A stretch of 64,000 bases of DNA, taken from assembly GCA_943788175.1 (NCBI GenBank), contig CALSPG010000005.1:288001-352000 (forward strand), in the 5' to 3' direction. Made by a program: the position numbers and the translations under genes. Below are positions 38,429 through 48,650 of the stretch, in pieces. Source of the DNA: an uncultured bacterium. GTDB lineage: Bacteria > Fidelibacterota > Marinisomatia > Marinisomatales > UBA1611. Positions within the stretch are counted from its first letter, which is position 1. Every line of letters starts with the position of its first letter. The notes beneath the pieces were generated by a model. That model saw only the letters and a list, made by a program, of their open reading frames with translations, was not told the origin of the DNA and did no database searches.

Positions 38429-38502
38429 GGGCGTTTAGCTCAGCTGGTCAGAGCGCTGCCCTTACAAGGCAGATGTCGGGAGTTCGAATCTCTCAACGCC
38501 CA
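38429..38502 (+). tRNA. tRNA-Val (anticodon TAC); CCA not encoded
   Basis: Acceptor GGGCGTT/AACGCCC, D-arm AGCTCAGCTGGTCAGAGC, anticodon arm CTGCC-ctTACaa-GGCAG, T-loop GTTCGAATC. Confidence 0.96.
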
Positions 38503-38510
38503 CTTCTCAG

Positions 38511-38540
38511 AAACCCTCGTTTATTGACGGGGGTTTTTGT
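38511..38540 (+). terminator. Intrinsic terminator after tRNA-Val (repeated after the right att copy at ~48477-48506)
   Basis: aaaccctcgt-ttattg-acgggggttt followed by T-rich tract. Confidence 0.75.
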
Positions 38541-38739
38541 TTTTATATAAGTCTGTCAAAGTTATCATTCCTTATCATTGTATGACATTTATAATAATTG
38601 GACACATATTTGGAGGACACAACCTAATTCAATTCTTATCTCAACCAAAGTAGGGGGGCATACCCCGTTTGATAGGGGGGGTAGGTATGTGTATATAAGA
38701 CGCTCACACATTGAAGGGTAATTTTTTGTAGGTTTAGAT

Positions 38740-38892
38740 ATGGAAATAATTAAGAAATTCTTTGATGGTATTGCTAAGTTTAATTTGAGGAAGTTGAAAG
38801 ATGCTTTTCCATCAATAGCAGATAAGATTGATGTAAGACTAACTCCACCCGATGATGATGCATATTTTACTAACCTTTTAAAGGTCATATAA
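38740..38892 (+). pseudogene. Remnant of a paralogous integrase C-terminus
   Basis: AKFNLRKLKDAFPSIADKIDVRLTPPDDDAYFTNLLKVI* aligns to AKFNLRKLRDDFPSLKERINLRLTPPSEDSYFTTLLNAI* ending at 48316. Confidence 0.8.
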
Positions 38893-39070
38893 GGAATCCT
38901 TTTTACTACATACTCGGTTTTAAAGAGGGGACGTACTTACCCATATGATAGTTAAGTGATTGGGTATTTATATAACCAAAATATTCTACAAATTTAATTC
39001 TATCAATATTAAGTTTTCCCTCTGTTTAAACCTTTTTAATTAACATACCTATCATAAATATTTTTAGAAA

Positions 39071-40993
39071 ATGAATGAAGACATTAAACTTGCTATAAAA
39101 ATTCGTTCCATTGAGGAAAATTTTCTTGAAATGTTTTCCGAGGGTTTATTAAATGGTACAGTTCATACATGCATAGGACAAGAGCTGTCAGGCGTAGGGA
39201 TATCAAAATTTTTAAATAGAGACGATTTTGTTTTTAGTAACCATAGGTGCCATGGTCATTATATTTCATTTACTAAAAAATATAAAAACTTAATAGATGA
39301 ACTAATGGGGAAAGAATCTGGAGTATGTGGTGGCATTGGTGGTAGTCAGCATATAGCGAGTGATAATTTCTTTTCTAATGGGCCTCAGGGGTCTTTGGCA
39401 CCTGTTGCAGTTGGCGTAGCTGAAGGTTTAAAACGCAAAAAAAATAACTCTGTTTCTGTTTGCTTCATCGGTGATGGCACAATGGGTGAAGGTATAATCT
39501 ATGAATCTATGAACTTGATGTCCCTTTATGAATTGCCGATGATTTTGGTATGCGAAAATAACATGTATGCACAATCAACTAGTATAAAAAGTAATTTATC
39601 GGGCGATATCAATTTAAGAGCATCTTCATTTGGAATAAAAGTTTATGAACTTAATACTTGGGATTATGAGGGTCTAATAAAATCCTCTCAAGAGGCAATA
39701 TCAAACGCAAGAAAAAATATCCCATCTTTCATTCATATTAATACTTACAGGTTAAAGGCTCATTCAAAAGGAGATGATAACAGAGATGGAAATGAAATTA
39801 AAGAATTCGAAAAAAAGATTTAATAAATAATTTTATCTTAAACAATGATGAATACGCTAAATATTATAAAGAAATAAAAGATAAAATTAGAGCTTATTCT
39901 AATTCAGTTAGTGAAAATTCTCAAATGGACAAAAATAAATATGTGGACGGTGAGAAGCTTAAACTATATAAAAAAATATTCATTATGTGATGTGAGAATT
40001 GAAAAAAAGCAATCAGATTTAATTAATAATTATTTTCATGAAAGCATAAATGATGATAAAAATATTTTATTGATTGGTGAAGATATTAAAGATCCTTATG
40101 GCGGAGCTTTTAAAATAACAAAAGGGTTATCTGATAGATATAATGAAAATGTTATTTCCACCCCTATTTCTGAAGCTGCAATAGTAGGCATGGGTATTGG
40201 ACTATCCATTCTAGGCTTTAAGCCTTACGTAGAAATCATGTTTGGAGACTTTATCACATATGCGTTTGATCAAATAGTTTCTAATGCTTCTAAGTTTTAT
40301 CATATGTACAATAAAAAGTACAATGTCCCTCTAGTTATAAGGACTCCCATGGGTGGAAATAGAGGCTATGGGCCAACACATTCACAAAGTATTGAAAAAT
40401 TCTTCATTGGCGTAAATAACATTCAAATAGTCGCGCTTAATACATTATTGAAGCCAAAAGAAATATATGAATCAATTAAAAATTTTAAACATCTTACACT
40501 TTTAATCGAAAATAAAGTTGATTATGGAAGATTAATCAATTATTCGCCTAAATCTATTAATTATGAATTCAAAAAATCCGACTCTGATTATCCGATAATT
40601 ACTGGAGAGCCTGTCAGTGCTAAAGCAAAAATAAGTGTTATTACTTATGGTGGTTCTATCCATCCTGTATTAGAAAGCATAGACGATATATTTTTTGAGT
40701 TTGAAGAATTTATTAAAGTAATTGTAATTACTAAACTGTATCCACTCGACATGGAAGAATTATCATTACTAACAAAGGATTCTTATTTTATAATTACGGT
40801 AGAAGAGAGTAATATTGAAGGTGGGTTTGGTTCAGAAATAATCTCTGGTCTTTCAGAAATAGAAAATGAAAAACAAAAAAAATACTTAAGGATTGGTTCG
40901 GAAAATGTACCTATACCATCAACAAAAAAACTTGAAAGTGAGATTTTAGTTTCTAAAGATTTAATTGTCCGAAAAATGAAAGAAATGTTATGA
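39071..40993 (+). CDS. Divergent PDH-like E1 alpha/beta (probably one fused ORF broken by two compensating A-run indels at ~39815 and ~39972)
   Basis: HTCIGQE, HRCHGH, GDGTMGEG TPP motif, TYR..AHS; beta part STPISEA, EIMFGDF, GPTHSQS; ORFs 39071 and 39911 share a frame, bridged by an open shifted frame. Confidence 0.8.
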
Positions 40994-42189
40994 GCGTAAT
41001 TGAAACTTTGAAAATCCCTCAAGATAATGTAAACGATAATGATGTGACTATATCAAGCATTTTCATTGAAAAGAATGATTATGTTGATGTAAATACTCTT
41101 GTTTTAGATTATGAGACATCAAAAGCAAATTTTGAATTATTTATTACAAAGTCAGGCTATGTGCAGCTTAATTGCAAAGAGGGGGAGATTGTTAAAATTG
41201 GACAAACTATTGGTATTGTTTCAGATGACAAAGATTACGTCCATCAATTTGAAGAAAATATAAATGAGAAAGAATTTTCTAAACAAACATTCAGCAAAAA
41301 AGCAGAAATTTTAATTAATGAAATGTCAATTGATAAGAGTGTCTTTAAGTATGAACAATTTGTCACTGAGGAAATTGTTAGAAATTTTTTAAATGATTCA
41401 AATGACATTATACCAAGTGGTGACATAATTAAAATTTCTCCACGAAAATATTTTGAGATAAAAAACTTAACTAATGTTAGTAGGAACGGGCTCGTTTCTA
41501 CAATTGAAAAAACAATCAATAGTTCTATAGTTGATACGGACTCAATTTATGAAAAAAATGAGTTTAAAGGGTCATTATCTATTTTGCTCATTAAAGTAAT
41601 ATCAGACTTACTTAAAATAGAAAAATATAAACATTTAAATAGTTATTGCGACGGGGAAAATATCTATATTAATAATGATGTAAATTTTGGTCTAGCGCTC
41701 AATTTAGGTTCTGGTCTAAAAATAGGAGTTATAAAAAAATCTAATTCTTTATCAATTAATGAAATAGAATCAAAAACAATACAGTTAATAGATAAATACA
41801 TTGATGATAAACTTCAAAAAGAAGATATTGAGGATTTTTCAATTGTATTGACTGATTTAACAGAAAAAGAGATTGATAACTTTACACCTCTCATTACTTC
41901 TTCAAATACAATAATGATTGGTTTATGTGGAGTAAAAGGTTCAACCCAAAGATTAATAATCTCATTTGATCACAGAGTTTCAGATGGATTAGAAATTGCA
42001 AATTTTATGAATGATATTATATCAACTTTAAAAAATGAATATCCCAATTTTATTGATGAAAATAGTTGTTCATCGTGTTTAAAAACTATTGAAGAAGATA
42101 AAGAGCTTGATACTCCGGGTCTAATAAGAATACTAGGTCATGATAAAACATTAAAATTCATTTGTAGAAATTGTTTAGAAGGATTTTAA
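40990..42189 (+). CDS. Divergent E2-like acyltransferase with lipoyl domain and C-terminal CxxC...CxxC extension
   Basis: ETSKA lipoyl-lysine motif, SFDHRVSDG catalytic motif, CSSC...CRNC tail. Confidence 0.78.
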   Translation: MSVIETLKIPQDNVNDNDVTISSIFIEKNDYVDVNTLVLDYETSKANFELFITKSGYVQLNCKEGEIVKIGQTIGIVSDDKDYVHQFEENINEKEFSKQTFSKKAEILINEMSIDKSVFKYEQFVTEEIVRNFLNDSNDIIPSGDIIKISPRKYFEIKNLTNVSRNGLVSTIEKTINSSIVDTDSIYEKNEFKGSLSILLIKVISDLLKIEKYKHLNSYCDGENIYINNDVNFGLALNLGSGLKIGVIKKSNSLSINEIESKTIQLIDKYIDDKLQKEDIEDFSIVLTDLTEKEIDNFTPLITSSNTIMIGLCGVKGSTQRLIISFDHRVSDGLEIANFMNDIISTLKNEYPNFIDENSCSSCLKTIEEDKELDTPGLIRILGHDKTLKFICRNCLEGF

Positions 42190-42191
42190 AC

Positions 42192-42413
42192 ATGAGCGAT
42201 CTAATAATAAAAAAAATAGTTTCAGTATTTCTTAAAACTAAACCGAATAAAATTACAAATGATACCATAATTGACACCTCGGTAATACAGGGGAGTGTGT
42301 TGTTTCATAGAATGATTGCACGTATAAATGATTATTGTAATATTGAAATTGAAAATTATGATAAAATTCATACTTTCCAAGATTTATTAGATCAAATTAA
42401 ATTAAAGCAATGA
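42192..42413 (+). CDS. Acyl carrier protein-like (atypical)
   Basis: ~73 aa; Ser in 'QGSV' at the expected helix-2 position, TFQDL C-terminal pattern; followed by PPTase. Confidence 0.55.
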   Translation: MSDLIIKKIVSVFLKTKPNKITNDTIIDTSVIQGSVLFHRMIARINDYCNIEIENYDKIHTFQDLLDQIKLKQ

Positions 42414-42417
42414 GTTT

Positions 42418-42738
42418 TTGTTAAGATTTGGTGTTGATATTATTGAAATTGATTCATTCCCATCTTTTATTAAAGGTAAGGATGATTCTTTCTTTTTGTA
42501 TAATTATACAAAAAGCGAAATAGAATTTGCTAAAAACAAACTCAACCCGGATATTGAGTTTGTTAAAATGTTTTCAATTAAAGAGTCTCTTGTCAAGTCA
42601 GACAATTTATTAGTAGGAAAGAATTTTAATAAAATAGAATTGTCATTTGTTGGGGATTGTTATATTTATAATGATTACAAGATAACTACATCAACTGCGA
42701 ACAATAATTGCATATCATTTGTTTTAAGCACTACGTAA
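42418..42738 (+). CDS. 4'-phosphopantetheinyl transferase (AcpS-like)
   Basis: GVDIIEI, YT..EI, FSIKES..K. Confidence 0.75.
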   Translation: MLRFGVDIIEIDSFPSFIKGKDDSFFLYNYTKSEIEFAKNKLNPDIEFVKMFSIKESLVKSDNLLVGKNFNKIELSFVGDCYIYNDYKITTSTANNNCISFVLSTT

Positions 42739-42873
42739 TCTTTTGTAGGCATAATAATTGGTTTAATGTTATGGAGGTGTAAGTAGGGTATGCTTTAAAA
42801 CGGAGGATGAACAGATGAACACTTATTACATATACTACCTACACTATTGAGATGTATGGATTTATATATAAAC

Positions 42874-43773
42874 CTAATTAAGGAGTTCGGGGTAGTCATC
42901 AATATCATCTAAACTATCACTTAAATATTTGGCATCATCGTTACGAAGTAAGTGAGGTGCATATAGAACTAATAGATTAAGAATAGTTTTATCAGTACAT
43001 CCATAGTGTTCAGATAATTTCTTCTTATTGATGTTTCCATTCTTTTTAAATCTGATCGAGTCTACAACCTTTTCTAATCTTCCACTTTCTAAGTCTTCTT
43101 GAAATGCAACTTCGTATCTTTTATTTTTGTATTTCTTTTTTAACTCACGCTCTTTTAATAAGGCTTGTGTTGTTACCCTTAATTGATTTTCTAAAACACT
43201 TGCAGAAGTATGTACCACGGGTTTTTCTGTTTCAGATAAATTTGGTAAAGTATTTGCATCAAGTAAGGTAGGGGCAAAGTCTATCATAACACCCTTTACT
43301 TGAAACCAATTTTCAAATTCTAATTTAGGTTTATAAAGAATATGTTCATCAGATATGAACTTGCTTCTGCCGTCATTAAAACTTTTAGGTAACATATTAA
43401 TTATCCAAGTGTATATCATTTTATTAAAGGCTATACAAAAGTTCTTATTATCAAGATTCAAACCTTTGATGTAAGAATATTGATTATCAAGAGTAACTTG
43501 ATGAACTAATTTTTCTCCTTGCTTATATTTCCAAGTAGTTGGCTGATTGAAATAAACATTAAAAGAATACAATGGGAACTCATATTCTTCACCATAACCC
43601 CATTTCTGATAATTCGCTTCGATACCTAATTCATTTTGTTGCTCATTATAGAACTGATTGAAGTCTTGAATCTTTTTATTGATTCTTGTTAAAACTCTTA
43701 ATCTGTCTTTCTCATCTCCCCTTATCCATTCATCGGTATAGGGTTTTGTTATCTCTCCTATCAGTAAACTCAA
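42874..43773 (-). CDS. Element-encoded hypothetical protein with possible C-terminal HTH
   Basis: NKKKLSEHYGCTDKTILN HTH-like segment; divergent from the excisionase-like gene. Confidence 0.5.
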   Translation of the reverse strand: MSLLIGEITKPYTDEWIRGDEKDRLRVLTRINKKIQDFNQFYNEQQNELGIEANYQKWGYGEEYEFPLYSFNVYFNQPTTWKYKQGEKLVHQVTLDNQYSYIKGLNLDNKNFCIAFNKMIYTWIINMLPKSFNDGRSKFISDEHILYKPKLEFENWFQVKGVMIDFAPTLLDANTLPNLSETEKPVVHTSASVLENQLRVTTQALLKERELKKKYKNKRYEVAFQEDLESGRLEKVVDSIRFKKNGNINKKKLSEHYGCTDKTILNLLVLYAPHLLRNDDAKYLSDSLDDIDDYPELLN

Positions 43774-43949
43774 CCTTGTTTGTTATATACCCCACCCCAA
43801 GCAAAATTAATAGGGAGTAGTTCTTTTAGTTTATCATTATCGATATAATCTGAATTAATCTTATTAGCCTCACACATTTTGTAGATCATTTCTATCAATC
43901 CTATTTGTTCATAGGCATCTTGTAATGTAGGTGTTTTCTTTTCTTCCAT
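43770..43949 (-). CDS. Small hypothetical protein (likely start MEEKKTP)
   Basis: Stop overlaps the start of the 42874..43773 ORF. Confidence 0.45.
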   Translation of the reverse strand: MEEKKTPTLQDAYEQIGLIEMIYKMCEANKINSDYIDNDKLKELLPINFAWGGVYNKQG

Positions 43950-44066
43950 ATTTCTTTTTTCGGAGTAATTCCGAAATAATTCGGATTTCGGATGGCGCGA
44001 ATTTATGATGTAATAGGGTATGGCACAACTAATCAAGGTTGGTCATAAACCAATAGGAAATGAATA

Positions 44067-44285
44067 ATGGAAATAAGAATAGTTGAATTATTAAATGAAA
44101 TAAGAACTCTAATACTTGGCAAGGTAAATGAGAGATGGTTGAATCTCAGAGATGTATCTGAATACACATCTGTTTCAGAAAGTACAATTCGTAGGGCAAT
44201 CAAAAAAGGTGTCCTTAAATCATCAAACAAAACGGGAAGATTACTTTTTAAAGTATCTGATGTTGATAGGTGGCTGAACTCATAA
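44067..44285 (+). CDS. Excisionase/AlpA-like helix-turn-helix protein
   Basis: WLNLRDVSEYTSVSESTIRRAIKKG.L...GRLLF..SDVDRWL. Confidence 0.82.
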   Translation: MEIRIVELLNEIRTLILGKVNERWLNLRDVSEYTSVSESTIRRAIKKGVLKSSNKTGRLLFKVSDVDRWLNS

Positions 44286-46206
44286 TGGATTACACCCATA
44301 TCTTTGAAAGAGACTTCAAATAGAAGTTAATAAGCGAAGTGGGATTCAATGGCAAGGTAGATGTCCATTACCAAGCCACGAAGATAGAAAAGCATCCTTT
44401 TCTTGGAATATAGATAACGGACTATGGAAATGTCACGGGTGCTTTGAATCGGGGAATGCTTATCAATTAGCAGAAATATTAGGTATAGCAAACCCATCCC
44501 AATATATAGAAAAAGAAACGGGGGGATATAGGAACAACCCCCCTCCAATACAGAAAGTTAATGTAATGAGTAGTGAAGAACTCGATGCACTTAAAAAAAA
44601 GTATCACTCAAATCTAACTGAACAAGATACCACATTTACCAATCCATATACAATACACGGAAGACGGGATGATGGGAATTTAGTTTTCTTTCTACCCGAT
44701 GCAATTAAGCATCACAAGTCTCAACCATATTGGGAGGGCAACAATAAGAAGTGTCAAATATTTGGTAGTGAATATCTTGCTGAGATAGATGCGAATGATA
44801 CTCTATACATATTCGAGGGAGAAAAAGAAGTATGTTACTCTCCATACAAGGGAATCAGTTTCACGGCTGGTGCTGGAAATGTTCCCGAAGACTTATCTCA
44901 ATTATACGCCTATAAAGATATTTGCATCATTCCCGATAATGATGATGCTGGATATAAGGGTGCTGATAAATGGGCAAAGGTCTGTTCAAGTAAATGGGGT
45001 GCATCCGTAAGGATTGCACAATGGGATGAGACACTCCCAAAAGGTTACGATGTGTATGATGATTATGTCCGTTCAACAAATGGAGATGAAGATTACATAT
45101 TTGATGAAACCGATAAGGCAATCAGCAAAGCAATCCCCTTTAAAGAAAATAACCACAAAACTGAAATTGGAGGTTTCAATACAATGGCAATAAACAACTA
45201 CATACAAACATATCAAGATGAAGAAGTAAGTCATATCATAGATGGATTATTAGTTAAAGGAGGTGTGACAATCCTTGCTGGTTCTGATGGAGTTGGTAAG
45301 TCTTGGTTAGGTTTACAAATGGGATTCTGTATCTCAAATGGAAATGAGTTCTTAGGTTGGGAAACAAAGAAGATGCCCGTTCTGCTTATTCAATTTGAAT
45401 TAGGTACGGCTCAACTGAAAGATAGATTACAGATACTATCTAAATCCTATGATATGAATACTGATTTCAATGTGGTAGACCTATCAGATGAAGACCTCAT
45501 CTTTACAGATGCTTGGGATAAGATAGAACAGACTATTGATAATCAATCTTTTACGGATGGAGTTATCATTGTAGATAATCTATATGCAAGTACTGATAAG
45601 GATGTATCTCAAAATCACGAACTCAAACCTATCTTAAAAAAGATAAGAAAGTTGTGTGTGGAGTATGACAATGCTTTTGTCTTGATTGCTCATCACAATA
45701 AGAACGAAAAAGATGATGAGCCGATCCTGACAAAAAAACTGATAACGGGAGGGAAGACACTTACAAATTTCCCCAACAATGTTATTCAAGTTGGCAGTAG
45801 CAGTTTAGGTAATGACATCTTTAGAGGCAAGATTACAAAGATAAGAGATAAAGGTAGTGATTTAATAAACATTCCTTTTATCCTCAACTTTGACCAAGAC
45901 ACTTGTGTTTTTTCAAGGGGTGTAATCATTGTATCTGAGATACTTCATTGCCAACCCATTAAAAAGAGATGGGAATATGAATTGCTTATAGACTTCCTTG
46001 CCTATCAATCTAATGAGGCGTTTACTCGTTCAAGGTTATGGCAATTCCTATCTACAAAAGACGGATGGGAAAAGACTCCATCAAATCAAACTAAGGTTAC
46101 AAGGTTTCTAAGTAGAATGAAAACTTGGGGATTCATTATAGAGCGTGAATACAATCTGTATGAATTAAGCCTTGAAGATATAAGGAGGCTGGAAGAAGAA
46201 AGATGA
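44285..46206 (+). CDS. Primase-helicase: CHC2 zinc finger + Toprim + AAA (RepA/AAA_25-like); frameshift near 44320
   Basis: In frame upstream of 44566: CPLPSHEDRKASF...WKCHGC; EGEKE and PDNDDAG Toprim; GSDGVGKS Walker A; IIVDN, AHHNK. Confidence 0.82.
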
Positions 46207-46662
46207 TTTACGGGGGGTGAATATAGTGTTTAAGTGTTCATCTTAGGTGCTTATGTATTCCCCTCTCAAATGAACAGATAAACAGACTTAACCATACATA
46301 GCAAGAGGATTTAAAGATAATGGAATATAAAGTAATGGACTTTCAAAAATATACAGACTACTTAGGTGATAGGTGGGATGATACTATTGAAATGGGAAAG
46401 TTTGATACCTATGAAATGGCATTGGAATCGAATGAGTATCATTGAGCAAGACCTTGCAAACGGGTAAGAATGGATTGCCTAAAGATAGTACTTTAGAACT
46501 AATTCAATTCGTAACAGAGTCACATCATACGGGTGGTAATAAGTCTTAATGAAGATGGCTGGATTGTGGTACTACACAAACCCGATATTGTTACAGATGT
46601 TACAAATGTTACAGATGGCTCAGAAGTAGGTACTCAAGCACACGCTGAACAGGAGGTAAACT

Positions 46663-47058
46663 AGGGCTATCTCTCACTCAGAACAGAGAGACATCGACTT
46701 GTCAAAACTTGACATTGAAGATGATATTTTCCCCCCTAAAAAAGGTGCAGATGAGGATAGTAACTCCCCCAATTTTGGCAGAGGTCAGCATCCTAATTCA
46801 AAGAAGAATCTGAAGCCATTATGAGAAAGGTGTTAGTGGTAATCCATCGGGTAAACCAAAAAAGGTAGCACAATTAAAAGAGGTCTTAGATTGGTGGGGT
46901 AGGCTTAACTGAATATGATAATTGGTCTTGGGATAAATACACCAATAGAGCAAATGGTAGTCAAAGGTATATGGAAAAGAGCAACCTCATGGTAATAGAC
47001 AAGACTTAGATATTTGCTATCACTTGGATTACTTGATTCAGACAAGTTTAAAGACTAA
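46663..47058 (+). pseudogene. Degraded small-terminase-like (DUF5681-type) gene
   Basis: GRGQHPNSKKNLKP / YEKGVSGNPSGKPK across a frameshift; AGGAGG RBS at 46651 before a non-ATG codon; further indels downstream. Confidence 0.55.
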
Positions 47059-47200
47059 TTTAGGAACGCTTAAATCAACATGTTAAATATACCTAAATAC
47101 AATTCCCCCTATGAGATGTGGTCAGCAGTAATGCCCCAAACGATTTCAACATGTTATCGTAAGCCATCTTTGGGGGGATGTAGGTAATAGGAGTCAGCAT

Positions 47201-48316
47201 ATGGCTACATATATAAAACAAAGAAAACGTCAGTACTCATCCCGTATTCAATGGAGAGACTGAGAATGGTAATAAGAGAGAACGAAAAATACCTCTTAAA
47301 ACTTCTTCTAAATCTGTTGCAGTAGTCAGAAACAATGAAGTAACGAAAGTTGAAGATACTATTATCGATGGAGATAATTGGTCTTTTGCTTGGATGAATG
47401 ATGATGGTAAAAGTTAAACTAATTAGATTATCTATTAGCGAGGCTTATGAAGAATATAGGATTGTCCAAAACATAGATGGAGTGAGAGCGTCTACGCTCG
47501 ATCGAGTTGATAACTCTATGAAGACACTATATAAAGTCTTTGGAGAGAACTATCCAATAGCATCATTAACATACTCGCATATAGAACAATTCAAAGAGTA
47601 TTGGCACGGAACACATCAACCAACTACAATGAATATTAATCTATCAAAGATTAAAGCGTTTCATAATTGGTGTCTTAAAAAAAGATATACTATAAAAGAT
47701 GTAGAGTTTAAGATGGTTAAGGAAGATGAAAAGCCTCCACAATATCTAACAGATGCTGAGTTTAAAAGCATAATGAAATGTGATATAATAGATGACCATT
47801 TCAAGAAAGCATTTGTATTCTATTTGTATACGGGTTGTAGAAAAACAGAACCATTTATTGCAGACTTAAATGGTAATTGGCTTACAATCAAATCAACAGA
47901 TGCTAAGTCTCACAGAACTCGTGATATTGAATTAAATGAAGTAACTAAGGGCATAGTTCAAGATATGAGAGATAGGTATCATTACTATATGGATGAATAT
48001 GCACAGAAACCAAGAAATGTGATTATGAACTATGGTAAGCAGTTCAAAAAGGCTTGTAGATACTTAGGTATCAAGGGCAAGACCTTACATTCATTGAGAC
48101 ATACTTATGCAGTTAGACGCTGGGCAATCACGGGAGACATTAAGATGGTATCTCAAGAGATTGGTCATAGTCTCAGTAGTGATGACAGAGAAGTATGCTA
48201 AGTTCAATCTTAGAAAGTTAAGAGATGATTTCCCCTCATTAAAAGAGCGTATCAATCTTAGACTTACTCCACCAAGTGAAGACTCATATTTTACTACGCT
48301 TTTAAATGCTATTTAG
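47201..48316 (+). CDS. Tyrosine recombinase/integrase, three frameshifts (~47261, ~47410, ~48172)
   Basis: YTGCRKTE (R), HSLRHTYA (HxxR), GHS / MTEKYA (H, Y) across frames; AGGAG RBS before ATG 47201; next to the att repeat. Confidence 0.88.
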
Positions 48317-48415
48317 AGGCATAAAATGGCAAAGAGGACACGTTTTGGAGGATACACCTAATAGACCTAAAATGCTAAGTGTAGTAATATATGTAGTTAG
48401 GAGTTAAAAACGCTG

Positions 48416-48650
48416 AGAGCGTTGCCCTTACAAGGCAGATGTCGGGAGTTCGAATCTCTCAACGCCCACTCCTCAGAAACCCTCGTTTATTGACGGGGGT
48501 TTTTGTTTTTCTACAAGTCTGTCAAAGTCGTCATTCCTTATCATTGTATGACATTTATAATAGGAACTTTGGAGGCTACCAAGCCCTAATTCAATTACTT
48601 ATTTCAACCAAAGTAGGGGGGCATACCCCGTTTGATAGGTCGGTAGGTAT
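48416..48650 (+). repeat. Right att copy plus ~180-bp extended direct repeat of 38450-38688
   Basis: Partial tRNA copy, terminator and downstream sequence, including a 36-bp identical block (38641-38676 = 48604-48639). Confidence 0.9.

Follow-up and report, generated by a model that had tools for sequence, protein, structure and literature searches.

A mobile island integrated in tRNA-Val

The window, the whole 64,000-nucleotide stretch of contig CALSPG010000005.1 analyzed here, comes from the genome (G000) of an uncultured bacterium of the order Marinisomatales and holds a mobile island, devoid of structural and conjugation genes, that is integrated in the gene for tRNA-Val(TAC), the sole tRNA gene found in the window by ARAGORN. 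The island consists of a cargo operon followed by a backbone made of a divergent gene pair, a primase-helicase gene, a gene encoding a DUF5681 protein, a small structured RNA, and a tyrosine integrase gene (Table 1). It was compared with genomes of the same genus (G003, the closest, and the sister species G004 and G007), with 160 loci (L030 to L189, where the letter L denotes contig stretches gathered in our scans), and with four metagenome runs (X1 to X4, library type unstated) read as Logan contigs.

The island lies between the intact tRNA gene and a direct repeat of the 3' part of that gene, which is the arrangement of a tRNA-gene island. The first-pass annotation of the window had described 53-bp attachment (att) repeats 9,966 bp apart. 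The spacing is right, the two copies starting at 38450, inside tRNA-Val, and at 48416, but the length has to be revised: one mismatch interrupts the 53-bp stretch, exact identity lasts for at most 48 bp (38457-38504), and the similarity extends over ~240 bp, with 147 nt at 96% identity when ungapped and ~90% over 243 nt when gaps are allowed up to 38688 and 48650. The repeat contains the last 54 nt of tRNA-Val, the tRNA terminator, and ~130 nt beyond; its left edge is sharp, the preceding 34-nt stretch being identical at the same offset at only 7 of 34 positions. The integrase shows both the HxxR and the Tyr motif and stops 100 bp short of attR. The G+C content, ~0.36 for the flanks, falls to 0.25-0.29 within the cargo.

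Altogether, attP of this element comprises the 3' end of the host tRNA, a host-like downstream stretch of ~190 nt, and a promoter-like element, with variable cargo in the slot behind that element. The promoter-like element occupies the same place in the relative L030, after attP and directly before the first cargo open reading frame (ORF). It also recurs before unrelated genes elsewhere in G000, at C7:276432-276550, directly after tRNA-Lys, and at C8:11308-11359; the circular relative L054 has its att target in the tRNA-Lys that adjoins the C7 copy. Behind the promoter-like element of the island lies a 50-amino-acid (aa) ORF (38740-38892) whose last 40 residues copy the tail of the island integrase, and contigs of runs X3 and X4 join the body of an integrase to the same sequence, which there forms the tail of full integrase genes. 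A second att copy was sought behind this remnant, at 38892-39071, and none was found.

Table 1. Features of the island and its integration site (window coordinates)
Feature	Coordinates	Strand	Basis
tRNA-Val(TAC), integration target; 3' part is the att core	38429..38503	+	ARAGORN; Rfam tRNA 73.4 bits
attL: 3' 54 nt of the tRNA and ~185 nt downstream, including the tRNA terminator	38450..38688	+	Direct repeat with 48416-48650; exact core 38457-38504
Promoter-like element, ~55 nt, facing the cargo slot	38690..38745	+	blastn repeats; promoter function predicted
C-terminal tail remnant of a second, related integrase	38772..38891	+	73% nt identity to 48196-48315; tblastn 64% aa identity
E1 alpha and E1 beta, thiamine pyrophosphate dependent	39071..40993	+	PF00676 E 8e-44, PF02779, PF02780
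E2-like acyltransferase with lipoyl-type N-terminal domain	40990..42189	+	PF00198 E 1.3e-23; PF00364 17.5 bits, under cut-off 22.1
Small carrier protein (acyl carrier protein-like), 80 aa	42171..42413	+	NF002150 E 1e-4, aligned 10-78 of 80, under cut-off
4'-Phosphopantetheinyl transferase (AcpS type)	42418..42738	+	PF01648 32.5 bits vs cut-off 25; TIGR00556
orf360, function unknown, divergent from HTH gene	42874..43949	-	~356 aa single ORF in L033 and L031
HTH_17/excisionase-family DNA-binding protein (AlpA-like)	44067..44285	+	PF12728 E 4e-11; phrog_66; TIGR01764 29.0 bits vs cut-off 28.8
Primase-helicase (CHC2 zinc finger, Toprim, AAA_25)	44285..46206	+	AAA_25 match; phrog_239; ~640 aa in relatives
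DUF5681 gene, frame-broken copy	46320..47052	+	PF18932 in L030, L101, L038; intact 243 aa in L030
c4-2-like structured RNA	47098..47186	+	RF02944 35.1 bits vs gathering score 41
Tyrosine integrase, facing attR	47201..48316	+	phrog_1 E 4.8e-28; PF13102; PF00589 in L030; 371 aa in L030
attR: displaced copy of the 3' 54 nt of the tRNA and downstream extension	48416..48650	+	Direct repeat; Rfam partial tRNA 29.1 bits at 48399-48468

Backbone genes and a structured RNA

Proteins of the window were searched against Pfam, PHROGs, NCBIfam, and PADLOC. The divergent gene pair, the excisionase/AlpA-type helix-turn-helix (HTH) protein, the CHC2-Toprim-AAA primase-helicase, and the tyrosine integrase of the first-pass annotation were all recovered, and the integrase, AlpA-like HTH, and primase-helicase match phage families in Pfam and PHROGs. 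The pair is formed by orf360 on the minus strand and the HTH gene on the plus strand. orf360 has no family in any of the four collections; only nine relatives were found, and its best Atlas score, 0.77, is under the meaningful range. The stop codon of the HTH gene overlaps the start codon of the primase-helicase gene (TAATG). Of the latter protein, 63 relatives were found at E ≤ 0.001, most of them ~640 aa long with a CHC2 zinc finger (PF01807). In the window this CHC2 part (94 codons) has no place in the annotated ORF and lies upstream in another frame, the true start being the ATG at 44285, and the Glu and DxD residues of the Toprim domain are invariant in the family alignment.

Downstream of the primase-helicase gene, 1.2 kb (46206-47398) contain no ORF over 43 aa. 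This stretch was first read as a noncoding origin region, a reading that was rejected because L030 has two genes there. Since L030 carries these genes intact, the ORF-free stretch corresponds to the DUF5681 gene, the start of the integrase gene, and the space between them, and three 9-bp repeats at 46589-46617 fall within coding sequence. The 243-aa protein of L030 has a C-terminal DUF5681 domain (PF18932, 32.4 bits versus a cut-off of 27.5). What had been annotated here as a small-terminase-like remnant is a broken copy of this protein, and its identity as a terminase is unconfirmed.

The structured RNA between the DUF5681 and integrase genes is a full-length match to RF02944 (47103-47181) and ends ~15 nt before the integrase start codon. 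It recurs at the same place in L030, L035, L034, L101, and L103 (31.5 to 39.5 bits), all scores, including that of the window, being under the Rfam gathering score of 41; a custom model added L105, L107, L100, and L043, the end of the RNA always falling ~15 nt before the integrase start. Among seven distinct sequences, 90.4% of the cells are paired, 10 of 24 pairs have changed on both sides, and the covariation score is 0.415 compared to at most 0.147 for slid partners, in an alignment that is model fitted and thereby favors structure. The idea, prompted by a palindrome, that the RNA loop pairs with 47075-47085 was rejected, as L030 does not conserve this pairing. Other family members, such as L054, have in place of the RNA a small ribbon-helix-helix-like ORF, named from reading the sequence. 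The RNA may control int or immunity. Neither it nor the integrase remnant at 38772-38891 figures in the first-pass annotation.

No window protein matched a capsid, tail, lysis, relaxase, conjugation, or coupling-protein family in Pfam, PHROGs, or NCBIfam, in line with the absence of capsid, tail, and conjugation genes noted at first pass. Thus, the integrase, AlpA-like regulator, and primase/replicase that form the core of phage-inducible chromosomal islands (PICIs) are present without structural genes.

A family of elements with a shared backbone and swappable cargo

Single-protein scans of viral and genome contigs with the primase-helicase gave no match, whereas alignment-based scans did, that of metagenome contigs yielding 80 loci. 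The relative L030 (7,569 bp) is 91% identical in nucleotides to 43636-48650 of the window and carries orf360, the HTH gene, a 645-aa primase-helicase, the 243-aa DUF5681 protein, and the 371-aa integrase, all intact. Its order runs int, attP, promoter-like element, a different cargo, and orf360, and it is ~83 bp short of closing on itself. L054 (6,710 bp) has a 38-bp terminal overlap corresponding to a 6.67-kb circle or a tandem array, and it is essentially a backbone alone, with no recognizable cargo. Moreover, one contig of run X4 joins position 48630 of the window back to 38677. Contig depth over flanks and island does not measure copy number and was left out of the evidence, as were island stretches that no contig covers.

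The HTH, primase-helicase, DUF5681, and int genes occur in this order in 11 of the 160 loci, many of the others being cut by contig ends. A DUF5681 hidden Markov model matched 24 (and weakly 2 more) of 167 loci, all of the island type, and always just after the primase-helicase; the c4-like RNA precedes int only in a subset of the family, the rest of the backbone order being conserved. Four tRNA targets were recognized by comparison with G000: attP matches tRNA-Val in L030 and L034 (98%), tRNA-Lys in L038 and L054 (43/43), tRNA-Asp in L042 (43/43), and tRNA-Pro in L043 and L100 (96%). The backbone of L031 differs from that of the window by only 94 substitutions in 3,463 aligned bases, yet its cargo (L031:173-1839) is different and encodes secreted-type proteins of 420 and 132 aa, which argues for recent cargo exchange. 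We conclude that these elements of 6.7 to 10 kb, with the same backbone and swappable cargo, are a well-defined and previously unnamed family.

In all, 20 runs from 13 marine studies contain sequence words of the island. Among 185,579 species-representative genomes, only 7 loci were found, none of them close. Since such elements are rarely binned, the chromosomal copy of the window, on a 583-kb contig, provides a useful link to a host.

The compactness of the family bears on whether the island could be a prophage remnant or an integrative mobilizable or conjugative element. Integrase, excisionase-type HTH, and primase-helicase genes do occur in prophages and in some mobilizable islands, as the PHROG matches recall, but intact relatives are complete at 6.7 to 7.6 kb with no structural, lysis, relaxase, or coupling-protein family, and the same compact backbone recurs across many contigs, so that this explanation is highly improbable.

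The tRNA-Val hot spot in sister species

Genomes of the same genus share tRNA-Val and the left flank, which encodes Lon protease. In G004 (contig C7), tRNA-Val is followed by the extension and the promoter-like element, then by a 71-aa ORF and gltB, with no island. The genes downstream are not syntenic with G000, which lacks them, and a clean empty site with both G000 flanks was not found in the related genomes. Because G004 has the extension natively, the ~240 nt carried by attP are host-like sequence.

The site of the sister species also holds other cassettes. A 7.8-kb contig of G004 (C27; L024, 1-7758) is bounded and divided by att copies and carries a carbamoyltransferase-type gene and a large outer-membrane receptor-like gene, both named from their translations; of an integrase it retains nothing but a C-terminal remnant, immediately ahead of the last att copy. 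The same pattern is seen in G007 on contigs C63 (L025, 1-5030) and C64 (L026, 5350-11400), where the cargo is an MBOAT pair. In each of these cassettes, a remnant of 40 to 50 codons of the integrase C terminus precedes the att copy, and the break recurs right after the catalytic Tyr. As these species hold att-flanked cargo with integrase remnants only, the tRNA-Val site collects cassettes and loses backbones, and the remnant at 38772-38891 of the window is a scar of the same kind. Homologous recombination between att repeats could shuffle the cassettes.

An acyl-transfer module as cargo

The accessory slot had been annotated as an acyl-transfer module rather than a recognizable defense gene, and the Pfam and NCBIfam families agree; PADLOC returned no defense family in the island beyond two generic domain matches. 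The operon encodes E1alpha-like, E1beta-like, and lipoyl-E2-like proteins together with an acyl carrier protein (ACP) and a 4'-phosphopantetheinyl transferase (PPTase), the ACP and lipoyl matches being weak. E1alpha/beta appears in the window as two ORFs (39071-39823 and 39911-40993), and in G007 as a single fused 640-aa gene (L200:1282-3204). In the E2 translation, the ETSKA lysine, the catalytic motif DHRVSDG, and a CxxC...CxxC tail at the C terminus can be read. The carrier protein has no Pfam match, and a homologue 55% identical stands beside the same genes in G007. The cargo is not a housekeeping pyruvate dehydrogenase, since all five proteins are far under the NCBIfam equivalog cut-offs.

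Among 301 genomes sampled from the phylum, the E2 gene was found in two, G000 and G007. In G007 the five genes also stand together (L200, G007:C2 44-10135), with 49 to 68% identity and 39% for the PPTase, and there the E2 lacks the C-terminal CxxC tail. They are neighbored by a glycosyltransferase gene on one side and by MBOAT, DltD/AlgJ-like, and sulfotransferase genes on the other (named from translations), which would make L200 a cluster of the surface-polysaccharide type.

The component list resembles that of the Qnc/Scl systems described in PMC6335953, in which a ketose phosphate is converted to glycolicacyl-S-ACP. QncN/QncL/QncM and SclQ1-4/SclP likewise comprise a thiamine diphosphate-binding E1alpha-like part, an E1beta-like part with pyrimidine-binding and transketolase C-terminal domains, an E2-like part with lipoyl and acyltransferase domains, a small ACP, and a dedicated PPTase. 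According to that description, the Qnc/Scl systems feed nonribosomal peptide lines in Streptomyces; the island cargo has no nonribosomal peptide synthetase, and the genes that surround its G007 counterpart, unlike those of Qnc/Scl, are the MBOAT, DltD-like, glycosyltransferase, and sulfotransferase genes mentioned above. By analogy, the cargo most likely converts a 2-oxo acid or a ketose phosphate into a C2 acyl-S-carrier protein, and the G007 neighborhood suggests that there the C2 acyl-carrier protein is handed to the MBOAT for acylation of a surface polymer.

Proposed model and its counterparts among known elements

We propose that the island is the integrated copy of a small site-specific integrative element that is also able to replicate alone, of the same kind as cargo-carrying tycheposons, marine VEIMEs (virion-encapsidated integrative mobile elements), and PICI-like islands, a reading to which we give a probability of roughly 0.7. 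In this model, the integrase would recombine attP with the 3' part of tRNA-Val inside the 48-bp identical core, and the HTH protein would direct excision. The excised circle would then be replicated by the primase-helicase, while the att-borne promoter would read into the cargo. As no transfer machinery is encoded, riding in phage capsids would be the leading guess for passage from cell to cell.

Several observations weigh against this model. Neither excision nor replication nor transfer of the island has been observed, and the circular contig L054 could stem from tandem chromosomal copies. No contig skipping the island, with an empty attB and both flanks, is among the X1-X4 joints listed, and in the closest genome, G003, the contigs break at both flanks. 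The window copy has three frame breaks in the integrase gene and ten in the DUF5681 gene. As for the cargo, all its proteins score far under the equivalog cut-offs, the carrier-protein match is weak (E 1e-4), and no MBOAT/DltD-like partner was found in G000 (tblastn, E ≤ 1e-5; genome 92% complete).

The island answers to the description of the cargo-carrying tycheposons of Prochlorococcus (10.1101/2020.12.28.424599) as much as to that of PICIs. As portrayed there, they share with the island an inward-facing tyrosine integrase at one end and integration in tRNA genes, and with the family several different tRNA targets, a small primase/helicase module with an excisionase, swappable metabolic cargo, hot spots with partial-tRNA arrays and degraded elements, and circular or tandem junctions. 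The four tRNA targets of the family and the att arrays of the genus fit this architecture, the likeness being one of description. The island differs by its host phylum and, as far as the tycheposon account goes, by a backbone that includes the DUF5681 gene and the c4-like RNA; it combines a phage-family gene with cargo, a combination never seen in the tycheposon study as it describes its elements.

VEIMEs (PMC9618062) are likewise marine, with monomers from under 5 to 16.8 kb, an integrase, an AlpA-type regulator, and a primase/helicase; they are described as sometimes having a small-terminase homologue, as lacking capsid genes, and as being found integrated in bacterioplankton genomes. They are defined by concatemers from virions, whereas the island family is known from ordinary assemblies (the L054 contig and the X4 back-joint). 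SAR406 and Marinimicrobia have no occurrence in the main text of that paper, and a literature search for mobile elements of Marinimicrobia or SAR406 returned nothing specific among the matches listed. The host lineage is, as stated at first pass, understudied. The VEIME and tycheposon datasets may already contain the island family.

In the accounts of PICIs (PMC10085698) and of the PICMIs (phage-inducible chromosomal minimalist islands; PMC10803314), the same core of int, AlpA-like regulator, and primase/replicase, the lack of structural genes, the small size, and the divergent regulator pair are found. The island has, in contrast, no confirmed terS, capsid-size, or interference gene and no known helper, and it lies in tRNA-Val, while PICMIs integrate next to fis in Vibrionaceae. 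Finally, the island RNA resembles the c4 antisense RNA of phages P1 and P7 (Rfam clan CL00128; PMC2864571) in its full-length RF02944 match, its multistem fold, and, as described there, its mobile-element context; it differs by its place directly before the integrase ribosome-binding site, by having no identified target sites, and by its host phylum.

Frame breaks of the window copy: consensus errors or decay

In this assembly, ~19 single-base indels break E1alpha/beta and all the backbone genes except the HTH gene, whereas near-identical metagenome contigs carry the backbone genes intact. A three-frame reading shows that the E1alpha/beta frame leaves and reenters at A7 runs (39810-39816 and 39970-39976). 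Two +1 changes, one in a G-run (43741) and one in a C-run (43790), divide orf360, and the primase-helicase frame is lost after codon 12, where three A (~44318-44320) stand against four in the relatives. The DUF5681 gene shows nine +1 insertions and one deletion compared to L030 and L035, and the integrase gene has +1 insertions at ~47265, ~47413, and 48172; that at 48172 falls immediately ahead of the catalytic Tyr (MTEKY).

The strongest competing explanation is that the window copy is a decaying, immobile relic whose frame breaks are real and which is heading to the integrase-less cassettes seen in the sister species, where G004:C27 and G007:C63/C64 retain only C-terminal integrase remnants. 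We consider it a serious possibility that falls somewhat short of even odds. The number of private single-base indels (13 over 44319-48172, besides the 2 in orf360 and the A7 frame switches in E1alpha/beta) speaks for decay, and so does the DUF5681 gene, which is at least 9.7% diverged from every relative next to a primase-helicase half that is 0.1% diverged from L030, its divergence being that of a mosaic with a normal substitution-to-indel ratio of ~7:1. Moreover, the indels of the DUF5681 and integrase genes lie mostly outside homopolymers, and part of the contig depth agrees with the window at 46819 (X3), 46989 (X1), and 48172 (X3 and X4). Nor is the genome riddled with breaks: ORFs of 70 codons or more cover 96% of it, and there are 11 deserts of 600 bp or longer, although this test is blind to single frameshifts.

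Other evidence argues for errors of the assembly. Contigs of X1 and X2 without any substitution compared to the window differ from it by one or two gaps exactly over the A7 and orf360 runs, which suggests consensus errors in homopolymers. The extra bases of the window at 46819, 46900, 46989, and 48172 are missing from contigs in three or four of the four runs. Of the 13 backbone indels, 11 are +1 insertions, whereas the usual indel bias is toward deletions. An X2 contig, 2.2% diverged over 45959-46722, has nine gap letters against the window, equal to the letter excess of the window over L030 in that interval, an excess that includes four of the one-base insertions of the DUF5681 gene. A codon-position test of the private substitutions had too few sites to separate decay from error. 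Hence, the homopolymer breaks in E1alpha/beta, orf360, and the primase-helicase gene are probably consensus errors, while those of the DUF5681 and integrase genes are possibly real; if they are, the window copy is locked in.

Other long stretches of G000 without an ORF of at least 70 codons lie at C6:9982-11411, C1:5815-6959, C1:413071-414207, and C5:449-2451; some of these may be rRNA and others decayed genes.

Is the element a helper-dependent phage satellite?

A second competing explanation makes the island a true helper-dependent phage satellite of the PICI or VEIME type, in which a helper phage would trigger excision, concatemers would arise through the primase-helicase, and the DUF5681 protein would serve as a small-terminase-like specificity factor directing them into helper capsids. 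This is the reading given at first pass, and we regard it as plausible but less likely than not. The island has no transfer genes of its own, its set of int, AlpA-like HTH, and primase-helicase genes is common to VEIMEs and PICMIs as these are described (PMC9618062; PMC10803314), and its c4-like RNA belongs to a phage-associated family; nevertheless, no island-type locus was found in IMG/VR. In the tycheposon study (10.1101/2020.12.28.424599), as far as its account goes, the majority of these elements bear cargo but lack a packaging gene, and the PICI-like ones never carry cargo.

Much depends on the DUF5681 protein. It belongs to a phage family, phrog_26239 matching 44 of 60 members, and its best BFVD matches are phage DUF5681 proteins (E 6.5e-3 and 2e-2). 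In Pseudomonas phage PS24, the DUF5681 gene opens an operon with the TerL and portal genes, a hint from position only. PF18932 and phrog_26239 are, however, both annotated as of unknown function, and the BFVD entry named terminase small subunit has an E value of 0.4. A structural model (predicted local distance difference test score of 69) searched with Foldseek against the PDB gave no match at E ≤ 0.001 (best E 3.3), hmmsearch of the PDB sequences with a profile reached an E value of 0.36 at best, and none of 120 listed proteins among 437 relatives at E ≤ 0.001 bears a functional name. By tblastn against GenBank phages, the 243-aa DUF5681 protein of L030 and the primase-helicase P0001 had no match, and the short DUF5681 form reached only E 0.08.

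Candidate partner phages do exist. The nearest primase-helicases outside islands (38 to 41% identity) come from IMG/VR contigs that measure up to 38 kb, and the one such contig that was examined, L127, carries TerS, TerL, portal, and major head/capsid genes and represents a related ~36-kb phage. Units of 6.7 to 10 kb are a quarter to a fifth of these phages, as in the VEIME concatemers described in PMC9618062. Against this, hhalign of the DUF5681 protein with the L127 TerS gave a probability of 0.3, and the island shares no pac- or cos-like or other noncoding sequence with the phage-type loci compared, the similarity being that of the primase-helicase coding sequence only.

Several of these phage contigs carry fragments of G000 tRNA genes, and ten phage-type loci, whose family of tRNA-bearing contigs has primase-helicases 27 to 41% identical to that of the island, contain a fragment 89 to 98% identical to the 5' 44 to 57 nt of tRNA-Ser(TGA). 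All the loci that carry such tRNA fragments probably infect the same host lineage. The 5' 44 nt of this tRNA, ending in the anticodon loop, is found at L143:5163-5219 and in L055, L075, L082, L085, L099, L124, L131, L141, and L144, and no integrase was seen near the fragment in L143. Further phage-type loci contain pieces of tRNA-Cys (L149, L053, and L112), of tRNA-Leu(TAA) with its flank (L159, L171, and L175), or of tRNA-Arg(CCG) (L161 and L167).

A bolder form of this explanation, which we judge unlikely, would see in the family a new phage-satellite lineage of the marine group of the host, in which the DUF5681 protein is an unrecognized small-terminase-like specificity factor, the c4-like RNA is a P1/P4-style immunity switch, and concatemers of four to five units are packaged by the tailed phages of ~36 kb whose primase-helicases have a common ancestry with those of the island family and which carry pieces of tRNA genes of the same host, with the metabolic cargo ferried along. 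If this were so, satellites, unlike the PICI-like tycheposons, would also ferry metabolic cargo, for example, a module for surface-polymer acylation.

Significance and other candidate islands of the host genome

Our preferred reading, that of a small integrative element able to replicate alone, places this locus among the elements with "plug-in" metabolic cassettes that are considered drivers of the flexible genome in streamlined bacteria of the ocean and that have been documented mainly in Prochlorococcus and as virion sequences without a host. The locus ties one such family to a chromosome and gives its full backbone, its tRNA targets, and near-identical backbones with different cargo. It also shows a hot spot degrading into integrase-less cassettes in sister species and brings to light phages that are candidates for infecting the same hosts. 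Two of its parts, the DUF5681 protein and the c4-like RNA, have possible roles in packaging and control, and the cargo suggests an unusual route to an acyl-carrier protein that would serve to modify the surface.

G000 has two more loci that pair an HTH_17-like gene with an integrase gene, at C8:5275-8168 and C2:40327-42350, with integrases 33% and 27% identical to that of the island, the C2 one in two pieces. Near these pairs lie a fragment resembling a tRNA 3' half (C8:27504-27608) and a 40-nt 3' fragment of tRNA-Arg (C2:51438-51477), and both pairs are likely to mark other islands. Outside the window, a ~200-bp repeat (C1:312656-312860 and 313920-314171) flanks ~1.1 kb beside tRNA-Leu(TAA) and tRNA-Cys, overlaps the ORF-free stretch C1:313387-314098, and matches the phage loci L159 and L175 at 80 to 91%; it is possibly another att pair or an island scar.

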